Source of the DNA: Clostridiales bacterium
GTDB lineage: Bacteria; Actinomycetota; Coriobacteriia; Anaerosomatales; SLCP01
Assembly: GCA_018333995.1 (NCBI GenBank)
Contig: JAGXSG010000008.1
Span: forward strand, 207,210-271,209
DNA length: 64,000 nt
Reading direction: 5' to 3'
The notes under the pieces: generated by a model
What the model saw: only the letters and a program-made list of their open reading frames with translations
Told to the model about the DNA's origin: nothing
Databases searched by the model: none
Position numbers and translations under genes: made by a program
In this document: in pieces, positions 1,243 to 64,000 of the stretch
How positions within the stretch are numbered: the first letter of the stretch is position 1
Layout of the letters: each line of letters opens with the position of its first letter

Positions 1243-1465
1243 TAACGCCGATGGGCATTGTCTTTGCTCCTGTTCATGCAGGTTGGTCAGGGACGCGTTT
1301 GTGTGTTTGTGGTCAAGACGTCCCGGTGGTACTATTCAAGTGTTCAGGCATCTAGCAGGCGTTCGGAGCGGCACTCCCCAACTCCGGCCTCGTGACTGCG
1401 CGTGAGCGAGGCTCCCGGCACGGAATCCGGGGTATAAGGCTCCATCTCGAAAAGGAGTTGATCTT

Positions 1466-2140
1466 GTGAACAAGCGCGCAAGGAATCGTCTCATCGGTGT
1501 GACCGTCATCCTCGTGATTTCAATCGGAGCTATCTTCATGAGCGTGGGTGCCACTGACGGGGCGTACTCGCGCACGGTGAGTGATATCGTGGACAAGCCA
1601 GAGGCTGTCGGCGAACGCGTAAAGGTCACGGGGACCGTCGTACCCGGCTCGTGGGACGGGAAGTCGAGTCCGATGACGTTCGATATCCGCAACGAGGGGG
1701 CTACGGACGGACCGGTGCTCAGCGTGGTGTACACCGGCGCTGTCCCCTCGACCTTCGGTGACGAAGTGACCGCGATCGTGACGGGAGTCATGAACGAAGA
1801 GGGCATCTTCGAGTCAACCGACATGAAAACCAAGTGTCCTTCGAGGTACGAATCTGCGGACAACGCGATTAGCGTGGCATCGTTGTTCGCGCTCGGCGAT
1901 TCGGTTGTCGGCAAACCGGTTCAGCTCACCGGATTCGTCGTTGCGGGCACGATTAAGCCCCCGGGCGGCCAGGTGCGGTTCTCTATCGCCGATGAGGGCG
2001 GCTCGCCTTCCATCGACATCGCCTATCCTGACGGCGCGCTCGCCGACGGCATGGAAGACGGCTCCCAAGTCGTTCTCGGCGGGGAGTACGATGCGGACTC
2101 CGGCCTGTTCAAGGCGACCAGCGTGGCGATGGCCGAGTAG
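1466..2140 (+). CDS. ccmE: cytochrome c maturation haem chaperone CcmE, Cys (CxxxY) variant with duplicated OB-fold
   Basis: RBS AAAGGAG lies 8 nt before GTG 1466. It has an N-terminal TM helix (LIGVTVILVISIGAIFM) and an OB-fold ending in K-C124-P-S-R-Y128 (nt 1835-1849), where canonical CcmE has HxxxY. Residues ~137-224 repeat the fold. It is the first gene of the ccm operon. Confidence 0.85.
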   Translation: MNKRARNRLIGVTVILVISIGAIFMSVGATDGAYSRTVSDIVDKPEAVGERVKVTGTVVPGSWDGKSSPMTFDIRNEGATDGPVLSVVYTGAVPSTFGDEVTAIVTGVMNEEGIFESTDMKTKCPSRYESADNAISVASLFALGDSVVGKPVQLTGFVVAGTIKPPGGQVRFSIADEGGSPSIDIAYPDGALADGMEDGSQVVLGGEYDADSGLFKATSVAMAE

Positions 2141-2268
2141 GCCGACGCCCGGGCGCGAGAAACGGTAGAATCGTTGCGCCGTAGGCGCGGCGCGTCACTG
2201 ACGGCACCGATGAAGTGTCTGCGTGGGCCGAGTGGTTCGCGGGACGACAGGGAAGTGGAGTAGAGCGA

Positions 2269-4311
2269 ATGGCCAATCTCGGCAGCCTGTTCATGGGACT
2301 CGCCCTTGTGGCGGCACTCCTATCCATCGGCGCGATATTCTTGGGCCGCAGAATGGGTCCAAAGGAAGGCGAAGGGCTCACAAACACCGGGTATCTAGCG
2401 ACGTATGGCATTCTGATCGGTATCACAGGCGCCATCTCGGTTCTCACGGCGGCGTTTCTTCAGGAGGATTTCACGCTCGAGTACGTGGCGCAGCATCACT
2501 CGACTGACGTCTCGGCGCTCCAGTGGGTCTATAAGGTCGCCGCGGTGTGGGCGGGCAGAGAAGGGTCGCTGCTTTTCTGGGCATGGCTCCTCGCGATATT
2601 CGCGGCATACATTGCGTACAAACGCAGTTCGTTCACGGATGACCTCTCCAACGTCTCCCTTGCGGTCCTCAACTTCGTGCAGATATTCTTCATCACGGCG
2701 CTCTTCATCCCCCTGAACAATCCCTTCAAGCTTTCTCCGGAGCACTGGGTCGGCCCCGGGGGCGAGCTTCTCATCAGCGGAGGCATGAATCCGCTGCTGC
2801 AGCACTGGGCGATGACACTCCATCCACCCACACTGTTCGTGGGTTACGCGGGAATGGCGGTTCCGTTCGCGTTCGCGTTCGGCGCGCTCATCGTCAACGA
2901 CCCATCTAAGGCCTGGGTAGAGATTGTCGATCGCATCACGGTGTTCGCGTGGCTGTTTCTTGGGCTGGGCAATGGACTTGGCGCGGTGTGGGCTTACGTG
3001 GTCTTGGGCTGGGGCGGGTACTGGGCGTGGGATCCGGTCGAGAATGCCTCGTTCATCCCGTGGCTTACGGGTGTCGCACTCCTGCACTCTTTCACCGTGT
3101 ACCGGCGGCGTGGCGGTTTCAAGAAGTGGGCGGTGGCGCTTGCTGTCATCAGCTTCGTGGGGGTTATTCTTGGCACCTTCATTGTCCGTTCGGGCATCGT
3201 GCAATCGGTTCACGCGTTCACGCAAGACGAGCTGTCGTTCTGGTGGTTCCTTGCGATGATGGTAGGGTCACTGGCAGCGGTAGGGGTGGGCCTTCTTTAC
3301 CGGGGAGATTCGTTCAAGGGCGCGGACGAGTTCGACAGTCTCACCTCGAAGGAGTCCTCGTACTACTTCAACAACGTGCTCATGCTCGTCGCGGCGGTCG
3401 TGATCGCGGCGCTCACGCTTTCTCCCGCGTTGGGCGGTAAGACCTACGGACCGGCTACGTACGACGCGATAGCCCGTCCGGTAGGTATTCTGTACTGTTT
3501 CATCATGGCGGTCTGTCCGCTGCTCGCGTGGCGAAAGACTGACCCGAACGTCTTTTTTGAGAAGATCAAGTGGCCGCTCGTCTCGACAGCGGTGATCTCA
3601 GCCGCGCTCATCTACCTGTGGTGGACCGTGATGTGGCCGCACTACTTGTTCACCAAGCCTTACGCCGATCCGTTGACATCGCTTGCGGCGTGGGAGGCGA
3701 TCATCGGCCTCATAGTTGGCGCGCTCGCCGTAAGTGTTGCGGTGTGGCTCTTCATCGAGGGTGGCCGCAGGCGAGCCGCCGCGAAGGGCGAAAGTTTTGG
3801 CGCGGCGCTCTGGGCGATCGTAACCAAGGCCCGCACCCAATCAGGTGGCTACCTCGCTCACCTCGGCGTTGGAATCATTCTGATCGGCCTTGTGGGCTCT
3901 TCTATGTTCGTGAAGGATATGAAGATCTCGATTCCCGATGAACCTGGCGCAAGTTTCGAGGTCGGAGGGTACGACTTTGTGTATCAGGGTGTCGCGACCG
4001 AGACGCTGGCCAACGAAGACACTCGCACCCAGCTCACATTCGCGGTCTCACGCGATGGTGAGTCGCGCGGAGTTGCCACACCGGGGCAGAGGCGTTACGC
4101 CCAGCAGGAACAGACGCGGTTCCACGTCAGCGTCATCGTCGAGCCGCTGCGTGACATCTTCGTTGTGTACGAAGGTTTCGACGAAGCGGGCAACATCCAG
4201 TTGAATGTGAAGATCAATCCGCTCATTAGCTGGGTGTGGTTCGGCTTCGGGCTGCTGAGCGTTGGCACCGTGCTCGCAATGTGGCCGAAGCGCCGCCTTG
4301 AGGCTGCCTGA
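2269..4311 (+). CDS. ccmF: cytochrome c haem lyase subunit CcmF
   Basis: Large polytopic membrane protein with the tryptophan-rich WWD signature WAWDPVENASFIPWL. ATG 2269 (RBS GGAAGTGGAG) is preferred over track start 2215. Confidence 0.9.
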   Translation: MANLGSLFMGLALVAALLSIGAIFLGRRMGPKEGEGLTNTGYLATYGILIGITGAISVLTAAFLQEDFTLEYVAQHHSTDVSALQWVYKVAAVWAGREGSLLFWAWLLAIFAAYIAYKRSSFTDDLSNVSLAVLNFVQIFFITALFIPLNNPFKLSPEHWVGPGGELLISGGMNPLLQHWAMTLHPPTLFVGYAGMAVPFAFAFGALIVNDPSKAWVEIVDRITVFAWLFLGLGNGLGAVWAYVVLGWGGYWAWDPVENASFIPWLTGVALLHSFTVYRRRGGFKKWAVALAVISFVGVILGTFIVRSGIVQSVHAFTQDELSFWWFLAMMVGSLAAVGVGLLYRGDSFKGADEFDSLTSKESSYYFNNVLMLVAAVVIAALTLSPALGGKTYGPATYDAIARPVGILYCFIMAVCPLLAWRKTDPNVFFEKIKWPLVSTAVISAALIYLWWTVMWPHYLFTKPYADPLTSLAAWEAIIGLIVGALAVSVAVWLFIEGGRRRAAAKGESFGAALWAIVTKARTQSGGYLAHLGVGIILIGLVGSSMFVKDMKISIPDEPGASFEVGGYDFVYQGVATETLANEDTRTQLTFAVSRDGESRGVATPGQRRYAQQEQTRFHVSVIVEPLRDIFVVYEGFDEAGNIQLNVKINPLISWVWFGFGLLSVGTVLAMWPKRRLEAA

Positions 4312-4322
4312 CGGCGGCGCTG

Positions 4323-5057
4323 ATGACCGCCGCCGCATCAGTCGAAACCCTCGCCGTGGAGGTCCGGGATCTCTCCCGGACCTTTGGCGCGCGCAAGGCT
4401 CTCGACAAAGTGTCGTTCGATCTGCCTACGGGCTCGTTCCTCTCGATCTTCGGACCCAACGGCGCGGGTAAGACCACGCTCGTCAAGGTGCTCACTACCC
4501 TTACGGCGCCATCTGCCGGCTCGGCGCGGGTCTGCGGGCTTGACGTGGTTGCCGACGCCGTCCAGCTGCGCGAGCGCATTGGGCTCATCAGCCATAACCC
4601 GCTCCTCTACCCGGATCTCTCGGCCGAGGAGAACTTGCGGTTCTTCGCTGACATGTACGGGATCGATGATCCGGCCGACCGCGTGCGCGAGCTGCTCGTG
4701 GCCGTCGAGCTCGATCACCGCCGCCTCGATCTCGTCCGTACCTTTTCGCGCGGTATGTTGCAGCGGCTCTCGATAGCGCGCTCGCTGCTGCACGCGCCGG
4801 ATGTCCTGTTCCTCGACGAGCCGTACTCGGGCCTCGATCCGCATGCGGTTGAGATATTCGATTCCCTCATCGCCCAGATTCGTGCGGATCACACATTCGT
4901 CATGATCAGTCACGACCTTGCGAAGGGACTCGAGCTGTGCACGCACGCGCTCATCCTCGCGCGAGGCGCATTGGTCCTCTCGGCGGCAAGGAGCGAGATC
5001 GACGACGAGGTTTTTGCGATGACGTACCGTACCACTGTGGGGACGGGGGTGGCGTGA
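4323..5057 (+). CDS. ccmA: haem exporter ABC ATPase CcmA
   Basis: Walker A GPNGAGKTT, signature-like SRGMLQRLSIA and Walker B VLFLDEP. It sits immediately upstream of ccmB/ccmC. Confidence 0.85.
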   Translation: MTAAASVETLAVEVRDLSRTFGARKALDKVSFDLPTGSFLSIFGPNGAGKTTLVKVLTTLTAPSAGSARVCGLDVVADAVQLRERIGLISHNPLLYPDLSAEENLRFFADMYGIDDPADRVRELLVAVELDHRRLDLVRTFSRGMLQRLSIARSLLHAPDVLFLDEPYSGLDPHAVEIFDSLIAQIRADHTFVMISHDLAKGLELCTHALILARGALVLSAARSEIDDEVFAMTYRTTVGTGVA

Positions 5058-5058
5058 C

Positions 5059-5814
5059 GTGGCCGAGCCAGCTGTGATATCTGCGCGCACGTCTGTGAGG
5101 ACTATGCCATCGGGCGCGGCGCTCTCTTGGCGGCAGTACCGCGCGATACTTCGCAAAGACATTGTCATGGAGTTGCGCACCAAAGAGATGGTGACCTCCA
5201 TGGGTATCTACGCGTTGCTCACGATGGTCATCTATCAGGTCGCCCTGTCTCAGGCGGGTACCGCGTTTGATCCACGTGACATAGCCGCTGGGTTGTTGTG
5301 GCTCGCCTTCGTATTTACGAGCATGCTCGGTTTGAACCGTTCGCTCGTCCACGAAAAGGACCAGGGATGCCTGGAAGCGTTGCTGCTATCGCCGGTTGAC
5401 CGTCCAATTGTCTTCTTCGCCAAGGCGAGCGGAAACGTTATATTCCTGCTTATCGTCCAGTTCCTGACGATTCCGGTGTTCGCGTTTTTGTTCCTGCAAG
5501 ACAGCGCGTACGGGGGAGATCTGTGGATGATACCTTTGGCGCTGTTTGGCGGAGCGATCGGGATCGCGGGCGTGGGCACGCTCCTCGCTACTATGTCGGT
5601 AAACACTAAAGGCAAGGACTTCGTGCTTGCGGTACTCTTCGTTCCGCTCATGTACCCATTGCTGCTCGCGTGCGTGTCGGCCACAAGCGCCGCGGTGCTC
5701 GGAGGCGACGGACACGTCCAGCAGTTCTGGGCCGGCATGGCGCTAATCGTCGCATACGATGCCATCATGATCGGGGTTGCGTTCGCGCTCTACGAGTTTG
5801 TGTTGGGCGCGTGA
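5059..5814 (+). CDS. ccmB: haem exporter membrane subunit CcmB
   Basis: Hydrophobic multi-TM protein starting 1 nt after the ccmA stop, with size and position typical of CcmB. Start is GTG 5059 or ATG 5104. Confidence 0.8.
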   Translation: MAEPAVISARTSVRTMPSGAALSWRQYRAILRKDIVMELRTKEMVTSMGIYALLTMVIYQVALSQAGTAFDPRDIAAGLLWLAFVFTSMLGLNRSLVHEKDQGCLEALLLSPVDRPIVFFAKASGNVIFLLIVQFLTIPVFAFLFLQDSAYGGDLWMIPLALFGGAIGIAGVGTLLATMSVNTKGKDFVLAVLFVPLMYPLLLACVSATSAAVLGGDGHVQQFWAGMALIVAYDAIMIGVAFALYEFVLGA

Positions 5815-5857
5815 TGCGCCCGGACCTGTCCGCGCACCGCCGCTGAGGAGGCGAAAG

Positions 5858-6610
5858 GTGAGACAACTCAGAGTCGCTCTCGTGCTGTTGCTGGTAGGAG
5901 GGCTACTGACGACCGTTGCGTTCGTAATGGCGTTTACCACCGCCGAGATGCAGCGGTTTGGCACGGTCACGCTTGATGAGCCGGTCGACACCGCCTTTCC
6001 ACTTCGAGAGGTCAACGATAGAGGCTTCGTATACGAGCGGCCGTGGTTCAGCCAGAAGATATTCTACTTTCATGTGCCGGTAGCCCAGGCGTCGTTCCTC
6101 GTGTTTGGCGTGGCTGCGTTTTACTCGATCCGTTTTCTCGCCAAGCGCCGCAAGGCCGACGATACCAAGGCGCTGATCGCCATGGAGGCCGCGATCATCT
6201 TTGTCATGCTCACCATGATCACTGGCATATTGTGGACGAGAGCGGCGTGGGGCGTGTGGTGGGAGTGGGAGCCTCGGCTGACCACGTACTTCATCATGAC
6301 GCTCATGATGATCGGCTACTTTGTCTTACGAAACTCAATAGAAGACGAGGAGCGCCGAGCGGTGTACGCGGCGGCTTTCGGTATTATCGCCTTCGTAAAC
6401 GCGCCGATATCGTTCTTCATCACACGGCTCGTCCCGTCGAGCCATCCGGCTGGTGTGTTCCAATCCGACTTCGCGACGTCTAATCTCATCCCGTTCCTCA
6501 TCGCTCTGGCCGGGATGTTGATGCTCGGCTATGCGATCTACGCGATCCGGATGAACGAAGTCAGGCTCGAGGAGCGCGTGGAAGTTCTGAAGAACTCGCT
6601 TGAACAGTAG
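5858..6610 (+). CDS. ccmC: haem exporter / haem-handling protein CcmC
   Basis: WWD motif WGVWWEWEPRLTT with flanking TM helices. GTG 5858 is preceded by GAGGAGG; track start 5777 overlaps ccmB and is unlikely. Confidence 0.9.
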   Translation: MRQLRVALVLLLVGGLLTTVAFVMAFTTAEMQRFGTVTLDEPVDTAFPLREVNDRGFVYERPWFSQKIFYFHVPVAQASFLVFGVAAFYSIRFLAKRRKADDTKALIAMEAAIIFVMLTMITGILWTRAAWGVWWEWEPRLTTYFIMTLMMIGYFVLRNSIEDEERRAVYAAAFGIIAFVNAPISFFITRLVPSSHPAGVFQSDFATSNLIPFLIALAGMLMLGYAIYAIRMNEVRLEERVEVLKNSLEQ

Positions 6611-6637: not shown

Positions 6638-6823
6638 ATGGACCCGATGAATCTTGAGTTGTACCGGTTGGTGCTCGCGGACGCGCCGTTCGTCATCGGC
6701 GCGTACGCTATCCTATGGATGGCGCTCGTTGCTTACGTAAGCATGGTGTTCATGCGCCTCATGCGCCTCGAGAAAGAGGTCACCGTGCTGGAGGAGTCGC
6801 TTGAGCGGCGCTCTGACGGATAG
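6638..6823 (+). CDS. ccmD: small single-TM protein, CcmD-like
   Basis: 61 aa with one TM helix (FVIGAYAILWMALVAYVSMVF) and a strong RBS GAAGGAGG, directly after ccmC. The call rests on size and position; the sequence is not diagnostic. Confidence 0.6.
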   Translation: MDPMNLELYRLVLADAPFVIGAYAILWMALVAYVSMVFMRLMRLEKEVTVLEESLERRSDG

Positions 6824-6898
6824 CCGATCGCTTCTGGGAACGTCGTGGTAGCCGGATATCGCGGACATGGGGCTCGGAGTTGAGAGAGGAGGTGCGTG

Positions 6899-7744
6899 AT
6901 GGAGCAAGCGGCTCTCGTGTGCTTTTGGTTCGCGATGTCGCTTTACCTGGTTGCGATGGTGTTGTACGTGTACCACTTCGTCGCGAAGCGCGCGCTCTTC
7001 TCGTGGTACGCCACTTTCGCGACGGGATCAGGCTTCATCGCGCATACCGCCGCGATCGCGCTCCATGGAGTAGCAAACAACCAGATCCCAATCGTCGGCG
7101 CGTTTAACTCGCTCTCGCTAGCCGCATGGGTGCTCGTGCTCATCTACTTCATCGTCGAGCACATCGTGAAGCTCAAACTCTACGGAGCGGTGTTGCTTCC
7201 ACTCGCCTTCGTCTCGATGGCGATGGCCCAGATCTCCCTGGGCGATGGCGAAGGGATCGCGCTTAGCAAGGATGCGGTCGAGCAGCTTGACAGCTGGCGA
7301 GTCGCGATGCACGTCGCACTCATCATGGTCGCGAACGCGGGGTTTGCCGTTGCGGCCGCGGCCTCCGCGCTTAATCTCGTCGTCGGGGGGCAACTCAAGC
7401 GGCTCAAGTCGACCTCACTGATACGACGCCTTCCCTCACTCACCCAAACACAAGTCCTGGCGCGGCGGGCTATCATGCTCGCGTTTCCTGTATACACCGC
7501 AGGCATTTTGCTTGGCATCATTAGGGCGATCGAGTTTGGCCTCGAGTATTGGTGGTTCGACCCGCGCGTGATGCTTTCGGGAGTGGTGTGGGCGATCTTC
7601 GGTTCTTACCTGATGCTGCACTACCGCCGCCGCGCTTCGGGGCGTACGCTTGCCTGGCTGGCTCTAGCGGGTCTCGTGGTGGTTATTGTCCTCGCGGTGC
7701 TCGCCCGGACGCTTCCCGCTGGTTTCCACATCTTCGGGTTGTGA
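6899..7744 (+). CDS. cytochrome c assembly family membrane protein (CcsA/HemX-like)
   Basis: Polytopic protein with the overall pattern of the CcsA/CcmC/HemX family. It has a degenerate W-rich segment LEYWWFDPRVMLSGVVW and RBS GAGAGGAGG before ATG 6899. It is the last gene before a terminator-like hairpin. Confidence 0.7.
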   Translation: MEQAALVCFWFAMSLYLVAMVLYVYHFVAKRALFSWYATFATGSGFIAHTAAIALHGVANNQIPIVGAFNSLSLAAWVLVLIYFIVEHIVKLKLYGAVLLPLAFVSMAMAQISLGDGEGIALSKDAVEQLDSWRVAMHVALIMVANAGFAVAAAASALNLVVGGQLKRLKSTSLIRRLPSLTQTQVLARRAIMLAFPVYTAGILLGIIRAIEFGLEYWWFDPRVMLSGVVWAIFGSYLMLHYRRRASGRTLAWLALAGLVVVIVLAVLARTLPAGFHIFGL

Positions 7745-8823: not shown

Positions 8824-8859
8824 TATCCATGTCCATACTTGCGAGGCGAGCCTGACGCC

Positions 8860-10248
8860 ATGCACTTGACGCTTGTCGGTCTGAGCCACAAGACAGCCCC
8901 GGTAGAGATCCGGGAAAAGCTCACCTTTCCCGCGCACCGGCAGGAAGAGGCCCTCGCTCGCATCACCGGATCGGCGCACATCGCCGAGGCGGTCATTCTC
9001 TCGACGTGCAACCGGACTGAGATCTACGCCGTGACCGCGGCTGGTGTGGACGGTGCCGGAGCCATCATCGATTTCCTCGCTGACTACCACGACCTCGATC
9101 GGCACGAGCTCGTGCGCTACCTCTACATCTCTGAGGGAGAGGCGGTCATTCGCCACCTCTTCAGGGTGGTGGCTTCGCTCGACTCGATGGTTCTCGGTGA
9201 GGCGCAGATACTCGGACAGGTCAAAGAGGCCTATGAGCACGCGTTCACCAGCGAAGCGGCGGGGCGCATCTTCAACAAACTGTTTCGCCAAAGCTTCGAG
9301 TTGGGCAAACGAGTCCGTACTGAGACCGAGATCGGGGAGAACGCGGTTTCGATCAGCTACGCCGCCGTTGAGTTGGCACGGCAGGTTTTCGACACGCTGG
9401 ATGGCCGCACCGTGCTGATTCTCGGCGCGGGCAAGATGAGTGAGCTTACCGCCAAGCACCTCGTGAGCAACGGCGTGAGGAAGGTCTTTGTGGCCAACCG
9501 CACCTACGAGCGCGCTGAAGAGCTTGCGCGCAAGTTCAGTGGCGTACCCATCCGCTACGAAGAGCTTTATGAATGTATGCGCGAGGCGGATATTGTGATC
9601 TCTTCGACCGCCGCCACGGACTACGTCGTCACCAAAGATCAGGTTGCTGGCGCGATGCGTGGCCGCCGTGGGAATCCGCTCTTTCTCATCGACATTGCGG
9701 TGCCGCGTGATATCGCACCCGACGTCAACGACCTTTCCGACGTCTTCCTCTACGACATCGACGACTTGAACGGTGTCGTAGAGTCCAACCTCGAGGAGCG
9801 GATGCGTGAGGCGCGAAAGGCCGAACACATCATCGACGAGGAGATGGTGTTGTTTGAGCGGTGGCTCGAGTCCATGGAGGTCGTACCCACAGTGGCCGCG
9901 ATCCGTGCCAAGGCCGAGCAGATCCGCCTCGTCGAAATGGACAAAGCGTTCAAGCGTCTTGGGGGCCTTTCGGAGCGCGAACTCCAGACTGTCGAGGCGC
10001 TCACCGCGTCCATTGTGAACAAGATGCTGCACGGACCTACCGCTCGGCTCAAGAACATAGCCGCCAAGAAGGATGGCTACACCTACGTTGAGGCCGCACG
10101 TTTCCTGTATGGACTCGACTCGAACCCCGAGGGCCTCAACCCGCACACCGGGATCTTCAGGACACTGCTCGGAAGGGCCGAGAAGGCCGCCGAGCGTGCC
10201 GCTGAGAAGGCCGCGCAGAAGGAGATGGGAGATACGATTGGCTGCTAG
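8860..10248 (+). CDS. hemA: glutamyl-tRNA reductase
   Basis: MHLTLVGLSHKTAPVEIREKL N-terminus, catalytic-Cys motif LSTCNRTEIY and NADPH site ILGAGKMSE. ATG 8860 is preferred over track start 8839. Confidence 0.95.
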   Translation: MHLTLVGLSHKTAPVEIREKLTFPAHRQEEALARITGSAHIAEAVILSTCNRTEIYAVTAAGVDGAGAIIDFLADYHDLDRHELVRYLYISEGEAVIRHLFRVVASLDSMVLGEAQILGQVKEAYEHAFTSEAAGRIFNKLFRQSFELGKRVRTETEIGENAVSISYAAVELARQVFDTLDGRTVLILGAGKMSELTAKHLVSNGVRKVFVANRTYERAEELARKFSGVPIRYEELYECMREADIVISSTAATDYVVTKDQVAGAMRGRRGNPLFLIDIAVPRDIAPDVNDLSDVFLYDIDDLNGVVESNLEERMREARKAEHIIDEEMVLFERWLESMEVVPTVAAIRAKAEQIRLVEMDKAFKRLGGLSERELQTVEALTASIVNKMLHGPTARLKNIAAKKDGYTYVEAARFLYGLDSNPEGLNPHTGIFRTLLGRAEKAAERAAEKAAQKEMGDTIGC

Positions 10249-12156: not shown

Positions 12157-12232
12157 GGGGATGTAGCTCAGCTGGGAGAGCGCTGCGTTCGCAACGCAGA
12201 GGTCGGCGGTTCGAGCCCGCTCATCTCCACCA
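12157..12232 (+). tRNA. tRNA-Ala (anticodon CGC)
   Basis: A 76-nt cloverleaf folds by hand: acceptor GGGGATG/CATCTCC with the G3:U70 Ala identity pair, anticodon loop TTCGCAA, T-loop TTCGAGC and an encoded CCA. Confidence 0.95.
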
Positions 12233-27035: not shown

Positions 27036-27335
27036 TTGCTGTGTGGCGTGGGAGGCCGTGTTGCGCACAGCCGTTCATCCAATTGAACCGCCTTTCGTCG
27101 CACAATGGTGACCGTACATACGATTTTCGGTTGGGCTTGCTAAAGTCTTCACTATTCAGTACCGAGTATCACAGCCGTTGGGGGACGGTGATTCTCGGCC
27201 TGTAAGATGGGCGCCTCGGCCGGGATGAGTCAGTGGCGCAACCCACCCAGACACGCAAGAGCCATGTAGGGGCTTGGCCGTTGCCTGGGGGCAGCGATGG
27301 CCGGCGACCGTTGTCTCAAGGGGGGAGCGTTCACC

Positions 27336-63142: not shown

Positions 63143-64000
63143 ATGTACCGCCCAGTGATTCGCCCGCTGATCATTTTCGCCTTGGCGTGTCTATCCGCTC
63201 TGTCCCTCGCGGTGATACCTGCTTTTGCCTACGATGAGCTCGACCCGCCGTCTGGCCGCGCCTGTGTCGACTGCCACGGGTTCGCTCCCGACGACTCGGG
63301 CACCGGCGCCCCGCACGATAGATCTGGCCCGCACGGCGCGTACACGTCGACCACACAGAAGTGCCGAGTGTGCCACTCGGTCCACCAGGCGCCCAGCAGT
63401 TTCGTGCTCCTTCCCGCAGACACCGTCAAGGAAGTGTGCGAATCGTGCCATGACGGTACCGGCGGGCGTGGGGTCTACGGCGTGATCAAGGCACGCACGG
63501 GGGTTGATCCGTCCTCTGGTCACCGTGTGGGCGCGGACGCCACCCGGACGATCCCGGGAGGCAATCTCGACGGCACACCTCGCGCGGTGGTGTTCTCGGG
63601 TGTGAACGGGACTCTGACTTGCACCGATTGTCATTCGCCTCACGGTACGACGTCGCGGACCATCCAGCCATTCATTGGTGACAGGTACCGTTCCAGTGTA
63701 GCGACCGCTACGTTGCTCGAGACCACGTCGCAGCCGACAAACCGTTTGCTGCGCAACCGGCCCACCGGAGCCGAGACGACCGCTACCGTCTACGGGACCG
63801 GTTGGTGCGCGACGTGTCATCAGGGACATCTCGGAGGATCCGGGGGGGCGATGAACCATCCGGTCCAGCAAAACGATCACTTCTACTACAACTATCTGCC
63901 GGTACTCACCTCGCACGGCGCGAGCGAGACGGTTCTCGGCGAGCCGGGCCAAACGCGCCTTGGCGGGTCGAATCTCGGCTACCAGATGCCCGATTTGCGA
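63143..64000 (+). CDS. secreted multihaem c-type cytochrome, 3'-truncated by the window edge
   Basis: This frame is not listed in the ORF track because it never reaches a stop. Hand translation from ATG 63143 runs 286 codons without a stop. Signal peptide MYRPVIRPLIIFALACLSALSLAVIPAFA. Five CxxCH motifs: CVDCH 63263-77, CRVCH 63362-76, CESCH 63437-51, CTDCH 63620-34 and CATCH 63806-20. Confidence 0.85.
   Translation, partial: MYRPVIRPLIIFALACLSALSLAVIPAFAYDELDPPSGRACVDCHGFAPDDSGTGAPHDRSGPHGAYTSTTQKCRVCHSVHQAPSSFVLLPADTVKEVCESCHDGTGGRGVYGVIKARTGVDPSSGHRVGADATRTIPGGNLDGTPRAVVFSGVNGTLTCTDCHSPHGTTSRTIQPFIGDRYRSSVATATLLETTSQPTNRLLRNRPTGAETTATVYGTGWCATCHQGHLGGSGGAMNHPVQQNDHFYYNYLPVLTSHGASETVLGEPGQTRLGGSNLGYQMPDLR

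Follow-up and report, generated by a model that had tools for sequence, protein, structure and literature searches.

To our knowledge, all mechanistic models of System I are built on a one-barrel CcmE whose haem-binding residue sits on a free, flexible tail able to enter the WWD sites in CcmC and in CcmF. We likewise know of no described member of the variant System I whose CcmE is anything other than a single barrel of about 130-145 aa. Canonical CcmE has one beta-barrel, and its haem-binding histidine lies on a flexible tail at the C-terminus, facing the membrane complex (PMC10457321). In the CcmE of Methanosarcina acetivorans, the cysteine of a CXXXY motif is required for haem attachment (PMC9084895).

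We analysed a 64,000-nucleotide window from a Coriobacteriia genome of 1.95 Mb (63% GC, 98.9% complete) and identified a ccmE gene with a different layout. Judged from its sequence, the ORF at 1466-2140 is a genuine CcmE, predicted to attach haem via a cysteine and to carry a motif-less second copy of its own barrel. Very probably, it is the sole functional CcmE of a CcmH-less, Cys-type System I in multihaem-rich Coriobacteriia, and its second barrel is retained without haem being attached there. The two-barrel layout is what is new; the CcmE identity is known and was already assigned correctly by automatic pipelines.

Two CcmE domains in one reading frame

The ccmE gene (1466-2140, plus strand) encodes a 224-aa protein, a predicted two-barrel Cys-type haem chaperone, and runs from a GTG start to a stop codon at 2138-2140. 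A Shine-Dalgarno sequence, AGGAG, can be read directly at 1453-1457 (plus strand), 8 nt before the GTG. All homologues share the N-terminus (M/V)NKRARNRLIGVT, which indicates that the GTG start is right. A search of positions 1200-2300 of the window revealed neither a promoter-like nor a terminator-like site.

Five features can be placed on this frame, all on the plus strand. The N-terminal membrane-anchor helix (residues 3-27; 1472-1546) is an AlphaFold2 helix, and its N-terminus, MNKRARNRLIGVT..., is conserved in homologues. Barrel 1 is a CcmE OB-fold (residues 34-122; 1565-1831; Pfam match at 34-130, 65 bits; pLDDT about 90-96). It is followed by an inter-barrel linker (residues 123-136; 1832-1873; pLDDT about 76 in both models) that includes the putative haem-attachment motif C124-P-S-R-Y128 (1835-1849), for which the family consensus is CPSKY and which was placed by alignment to the 2kct Cys and the 1j6q His. 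Barrel 2 is a CcmE-type OB-fold without an attachment motif (residues 137-223; 1874-2134; Pfam 38 bits alone; pLDDT 90-98). The protein thus combines a PF03100 match, an anchor with an OB-type barrel, a Cys with Tyr at +4 and ccmABC(D)/ccmF neighbours, all of which mark membership of the CcmE family.

An earlier note on this DNA, made by reading the sequence, had described a first OB-fold ending in K123-C124-P-S-R-Y128 and a repeat of the same fold over residues ~137-224; the motif is present in the translation, and profile searches bear out the repeat. The whole 224-aa protein matches PF03100 (CcmE; curated cut-off 24.6 bits) with 99.1 bits over two stretches. Searched alone, the N-terminal half gives 65.3 bits over residues 34-130 and the C-terminal 96 aa give 38.0 bits (residues about 138-221; E 2.3e-9). 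The protein therefore has two CcmE domains, not one CcmE domain joined to an unrelated C-terminal family. A six-frame search of the whole genome returned the same two PF03100 matches in one open frame, and this search of the 1.95-Mb, 98.9%-complete genome found no second CcmE locus.

The two halves can also be aligned with each other. A BLASTP comparison of half against half finds 29% identity across 73 aa (E 1e-5), and its alignment brings together precisely the string pairs that the note had picked out, namely VGERVKVTGTVVPGS/VGKPVQLTGFVVAGT, FDIRNEG/FSIADEG and GIFESTD/GLFKATS. Family profiles of barrel 1 and barrel 2, each built from 38 diverse members, align in hhalign with 99.4% probability (E 4.5e-21, 84 columns). 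The alignment of barrel 2 stops just short of the position of T-K-C-P-S-K-Y in barrel 1. No Cys/His-x3-Tyr occurs in the second barrel, a point that the note had made and that we confirmed in the sequence and in the family alignments.

Predicted structure

We predicted the structure twice with AlphaFold2, and both runs yield two confident barrels. The first run (full length, 41-sequence alignment) has a mean pLDDT of 87.2 and contains two helices, at 3-27 and at 137-147, with barrel 1 spanning 35-122 and barrel 2 spanning 151-223. The second run, restricted to the soluble residues 31-224 and based on 73 sequences, has a pLDDT of 90.8 and a pTM of 0.57. Both barrels have pLDDT values above 90, and the block around C124 (pLDDT about 76) is the least confident piece of the soluble region. 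C124 is thus predicted to lie in a flexible inter-barrel linker of ~14 residues, not on a free tail.

Across both runs the pTM is 0.52-0.57. Such low values mean that each barrel is modelled with confidence but their arrangement relative to each other is not, and we make no claim about inter-barrel geometry. A Foldseek search returned the CcmE structures 1lm0/1j6q (TM 0.72 on target), 8ce8 chain E, 1sr3 and 2kct. It also returned generic tandem-OB proteins with poor rmsd.

The attachment motif and its conservation

The best PDB sequence match is 2kct, the CcmE of D. vulgaris. In PDB sequence comparisons, ...DMKTKCPSRY aligns with ...LMTKCP of 2kct and also with ...VLAKHDENY of Shewanella CcmE (1j6q). 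These alignments place C124 at the position of the haem-binding His/Cys of solved CcmEs, as had been supposed from the sequence, and Y128 at the position of the Tyr.

The motif is highly conserved among 111 sampled family members, with Cys in 110, Pro at +1 in all 111 and Tyr at +4 in 107. CPSKY is near-invariant in the two-barrel family, and linker residues 123-136 have the lowest dN of all regions. A C-P-E-K subclade keeps the Cys and has no Tyr at +4 (P0113, P0117, P0125, P0127, P0129 and L069). In rare members the Cys itself is replaced, by Gln in P0174 (a 7-member cluster) and by Val in the single protein P0209. The subclade and these rare members show that the motif is not absolutely fixed in the family.

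Operon and genome context

The ccmE gene heads a ccmE-F-A-B-C-D(alt) operon, and 60-73 of 81 related loci keep this gene order. All of the following genes lie on the plus strand. The gene for the haem lyase CcmF (2215-4311; 698 aa; PF01578 and PF16327; TIGR00353, 349 bits) directly follows ccmE here and in 73 of the 81 loci. Next come ccmA, which encodes an ABC ATPase and keeps a conserved position (4323-5057; PF00005), ccmB (5059-5814; PF03379, 90.5 bits) and ccmC (5777-6610; PF01578; TIGR01191, 102 bits). The start of ccmC is uncertain, as its longest ORF runs into the end of ccmB. A 61-aa single-helix protein is encoded at 6638-6823; it falls below Pfam CcmD and matches an alternative CcmD family (TIGR04391 CcmD_alt_fam, 25.7 bits, cut-off 24). 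A small ORF of this alternative type follows ccmC in 60 of the 81 loci.

Further genes flank the operon. A CcsA-like 'cytochrome c assembly' membrane protein is encoded at 6896-7744 (plus strand; PF01578; TIGR03144, 103.8 bits, under the cut-off of 187.6), and its gene is kept in 55 of the 81 loci. The position of this gene presumably resembles that of Bacillus HemX. Downstream of it lies a glutamyl-tRNA-reductase-like (hemA-like) ORF (8839-10248), a likeness drawn from sequence only. On the other side, a 311-aa ORF (307-1242) sits on the same plus strand directly 5' of ccmE and is in place in 68 of the 81 related Coriobacteriia loci. It has no match in Pfam, NCBIfam or the PDB, and may encode a partner of the ccm/hem gene cluster.

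CcmH is absent from the whole 98.9%-complete genome, in which the best PF03918 match reaches 15.1 bits (cut-off 25). Together with the Cys-type motif, this agrees with the note's assignment of the locus to the CxxxY variant of System I. ResB is also absent genome-wide, the sole PF05140 signal being the C-terminal end of CcmF. The genome therefore has no System II (ResB/CcsB plus CcsA).

A crude ORF scan of the genome identified about 41 ORFs with at least two CXXCH motifs, with a maximum of 21 in one ORF. This richness in multihaem cytochromes, unusual for a genome of 1.95 Mb, suggests extensive outward electron transfer in a monoderm. The sole CcmE must serve this very large cytochrome c load, which is a strong argument that it is functional.

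The window contains other features. An ORF with seven CXXCH motifs at about 63143-64000 (plus strand) runs past the window end. A c-di-GMP-II riboswitch aptamer lies at 27172-27256 (plus strand; Rfam 56.3 bits, gathering score 53.5, full-length model), and a tRNA gene lies at 12157-12229 (plus strand; RF00005, 65 bits).

Distribution of two-barrel CcmE

We identified 224 clusters in a word-indexed search, nearly all of 221-230 aa. Those with names are labelled plain 'CcmE' and belong to Coriobacteriia or Anaerosomatales MAGs. A profile search of 1.84 billion representatives returned 62 clusters at E <=1e-30. Most of them are two-barrel proteins about 221-238 aa long; the minority outside this length range are apparently fragments or misjoined frames. 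Below these 62 clusters lie single-barrel CPSKY CcmEs of 130-145 aa. A scan of named genomes gave 322 relatives, and the labels of the best 80 are without exception of Coriobacteriia type. Among named relatives, Anaerosomatales MAGs are the closest, and the farthest among the best 80 of the 322 is an Eggerthellaceae MAG with 36% identity. The taxonomic spread of the family rests on such MAG labels (Eggerthellaceae, Coriobacteriaceae and Anaerosomatales).

We also surveyed genomes directly. CcmE is present in 196 of 301 genomes of the class Coriobacteriia, and in 187 of these 196 a single frame of about 225-250 aa holds two PF03100 matches. In a survey of the phylum (401 Actinomycetota genomes), 160 genomes outside the class carry CcmE, and about 150 of these show a single match, the frames being about 130-190 aa long. 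In those two-match genomes outside the class that could be checked, the matches lie on different contigs or in separate genes. The single-barrel CcmEs of other Actinomycetota include both His-type (KHDENY and similar) and Cys-type (KCPSKY) proteins. The two-barrel CcmE is a class-wide trait of Coriobacteriia and is not peculiar to the present genome.

These searches bear on two statements of the earlier note. That an ordinary CcmE is a single barrel of ~130-160 aa agrees with the profile searches of clusters and of phylum genomes. The note had also called a tandem-OB CcmE an unfamiliar architecture. This accords with our literature searches, which found no paper describing a two-domain CcmE, but the layout is the norm in the class Coriobacteriia and is already present in databases as 'CcmE'.

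Separate, adjacent Cys-type ccmE paralogues exist in another Actinomycetota family (L105), and the 224-aa ORF might accordingly be an artefact in which assembly or gene calling has joined two neighbouring ccmE genes. We regard this as exceedingly improbable. The frame is continuous, and within it lies neither a second membrane anchor nor another start signal. It moreover recurs undivided in hundreds of independent assemblies, some of them single-contig genomes.

Origin and constraint of barrel 2

When sequences of both barrels are placed in one tree with single-barrel CcmEs, all barrel 2 sequences form one clade (SH-aLRT 92) and barrel 1 nests among single-barrel CPSKY proteins. Barrel 2 thus appears to have had a single origin, early in the class Coriobacteriia, and to have lost the motif afterwards. 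Its attachment point in the tree has no resolved placement. In hhalign comparisons, barrel 2 scores 110.7 against barrel 1 and 131.3 against single-barrel CPSKY CcmEs. Tree placement and scores together do not decide between internal duplication and fusion of a paralogue.

Both barrels are under selective constraint. Across 30 close pairs (80-97% amino-acid identity), barrel 1 has a dN/dS of 0.05-0.25 and barrel 2 one of 0.08-0.28. These similar values indicate that barrel 2 is under purifying selection of like strength. An all-pairs dN/dS calculation was saturated and inflated and was set aside.

The residues under constraint differ in part between the barrels. Glycines and core hydrophobics are conserved in both. 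Conservation of S62, T96-F97-G98 and the TKCPSKYE motif is confined to barrel 1, and barrel 2 is without the S62 and T96-F97-G98 signature. F97 presumably corresponds to the haem-platform residue F103 of E. coli CcmE. Barrel 2 in turn has conserved positions of its own, R171 (103 of 111 members) and F215 (104 of 111), and within barrel 2 the residues R171, F172, G206 and F215 are invariant or near-invariant. Purifying selection and these residues together indicate that barrel 2 is a diverged module under constraint and does not redundantly duplicate the haem platform.

A quite different view is that barrel 2 is a functionless, neutral relic of an old duplication. It has lost the attachment motif, and its rate of evolution is somewhat above that of barrel 1 (34% vs 40% mean pairwise identity), as might be expected of a relic. 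Against this, it is kept in 187 of 196 CcmE-bearing genomes across the class, its fold is predicted with high confidence, its dN/dS is 0.08-0.28, and R171, F172, G206 and F215 scarcely vary. A relic is therefore very improbable.

A proposed mechanism and the role of barrel 2

The proposed mechanism follows that of characterised CcmEs. The N-terminal helix would hold CcmE in the membrane, with barrel 1, C124-x3-Y128 and barrel 2 following in that order. By analogy with characterised CcmEs, CcmC would deliver haem, which would bind covalently at C124. CcmAB(D) would then help to release this haem, which would be handed to CcmF and ligated at CXXCH sites, again by analogy.

What barrel 2 contributes to these steps can be read in several ways, of which shielding of haem and docking of CcmF or the apocytochrome had been suggested in the note. 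The reading that we prefer, while giving it somewhat less than an even chance, is that barrel 2 would close over the linker-bound haem as a second wall or lid. The AlphaFold models predict no fixed inter-barrel contact and so lend a lid no structural support in the apo state. Loss of S62 and of the T96-F97-G98 patch argues against barrel 2 as a simple second haem platform. Together, the low pTM and the disappearance of this patch from barrel 2 are slight evidence against a simple lid. A single barrel suffices in other monoderm Actinomycetota, so the type of cell envelope is not by itself an explanation for barrel 2.

In the main alternative, barrel 2 would be a docking or substrate-handling module for CcmF, CcmC or the unfolded apocytochrome, one that aids a system without CcmH/CcmI in handling long multihaem substrates. 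The absence of CcmH from the genome and the very many multihaem cytochromes encoded there are consistent with such a role. So are the barrel's own R171 and F215, the disappearance of the S62/TFG patch of barrel 1, and the AlphaFold models, in which the barrels are independent, like beads on a string. However, the CcmH-less Cys-type systems of Desulfovibrio and archaea run on a single-barrel CcmE (PMC9084895), and single-barrel CPSKY CcmEs occur in other Actinomycetota. We consider docking possible but rather unlikely.

In a bolder proposal, C124 would lie in a hinge between the barrels, so that holo-CcmE would form a haem-enclosing clamp in which the Tyr might be dispensable, as in the CPEK subclade. 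Such a clamp might substitute for CcmH/I and similar accessory factors at the hand-off to CcmF. The recurrence of extra barrels, and of adjacent Cys-type ccmE paralogues, might then point to a requirement that Cys-type systems generally face at an exposed cell surface. We hold this proposal to be doubtful as a whole.

Significance

The two-barrel CcmE matters because of where its attachment residue lies. A whole class, which includes Eggerthellaceae-labelled lineages and Anaerosomatales of sediment or soda lakes, matures multihaem cytochromes, often very numerous, using a CcmE that has its attachment residue inside the chain, between two barrels. This protein offers a test of which features of the 'flexible tail' model are indispensable, and a natural two-domain construct for trapping holo-CcmE. 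It also bears on extracellular electron transfer by monoderms. All the same, the protein that it varies is well understood, and the finding should be mildly surprising to a specialist.

Comparison with known CcmE proteins

The present system has each tested defining feature of the variant System I except a single-barrel CcmE of about 130-145 aa. The CcmEs of Desulfovibrio desulfuricans, D. vulgaris (2KCT) and Methanosarcina acetivorans (PMC9084895) share with it the anchor, the barrel and the Cys in T-K-C-P-x-x-Y. The variant systems of Desulfovibrio and archaea are likewise without CcmH, and their operons likewise include ccmABCF. The Desulfovibrio and archaeal proteins are about 130-145 aa long and have one barrel, their Cys lying close to a free C-terminus, whereas the present protein has a second barrel of ~90 aa and an internal Cys. 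Compared with the archaeal variant System I, an alternative CcmD is found in the present operon only.

The His-type CcmEs of E. coli (1SR3, 8CE8 chain E) and Shewanella (1J6Q, 1LM0) have the same fold, attachment position and pathway context. They differ in having a His, a single barrel and a flexible C-terminal tail (PMC10457321), in contrast to the Cys and two barrels of the present protein. CcmE of E. coli and Shewanella works with CcmH/CcmG, whereas the present genome is without CcmH, or such genes were not found in the operon.

The nearest sequence relatives of barrel 1 are single-barrel CPSKY CcmEs from other bacteria (P0186-P0190, L086 and L104), other classes of Actinomycetota included, which have an identical KCPSKY and no second barrel. 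In another Actinomycetota family, we observed two adjacent, separately anchored Cys-type ccmE genes before ccmF (L105, 351-794 and 825-1346, plus strand), with CPDNY and CPSKY motifs.

A multi-barrel, Cys-type CcmE also occurs in Chloroflexota MAGs, beside ccmF and ccmABC (P0251, which is L084 1428-2336 on the plus strand, and P0317). These two sequences, the only ones of this form found, are 302-305 aa long and have three PF03100 matches. Their TKCASKY motif lies at the extreme C-terminus, after the motif-less copies, which is the reverse of the order in Coriobacteriia. Extra motif-less CcmE barrels are present in two unrelated lineages, at the C-terminal side in Coriobacteriia and at the N-terminal side in Chloroflexota.
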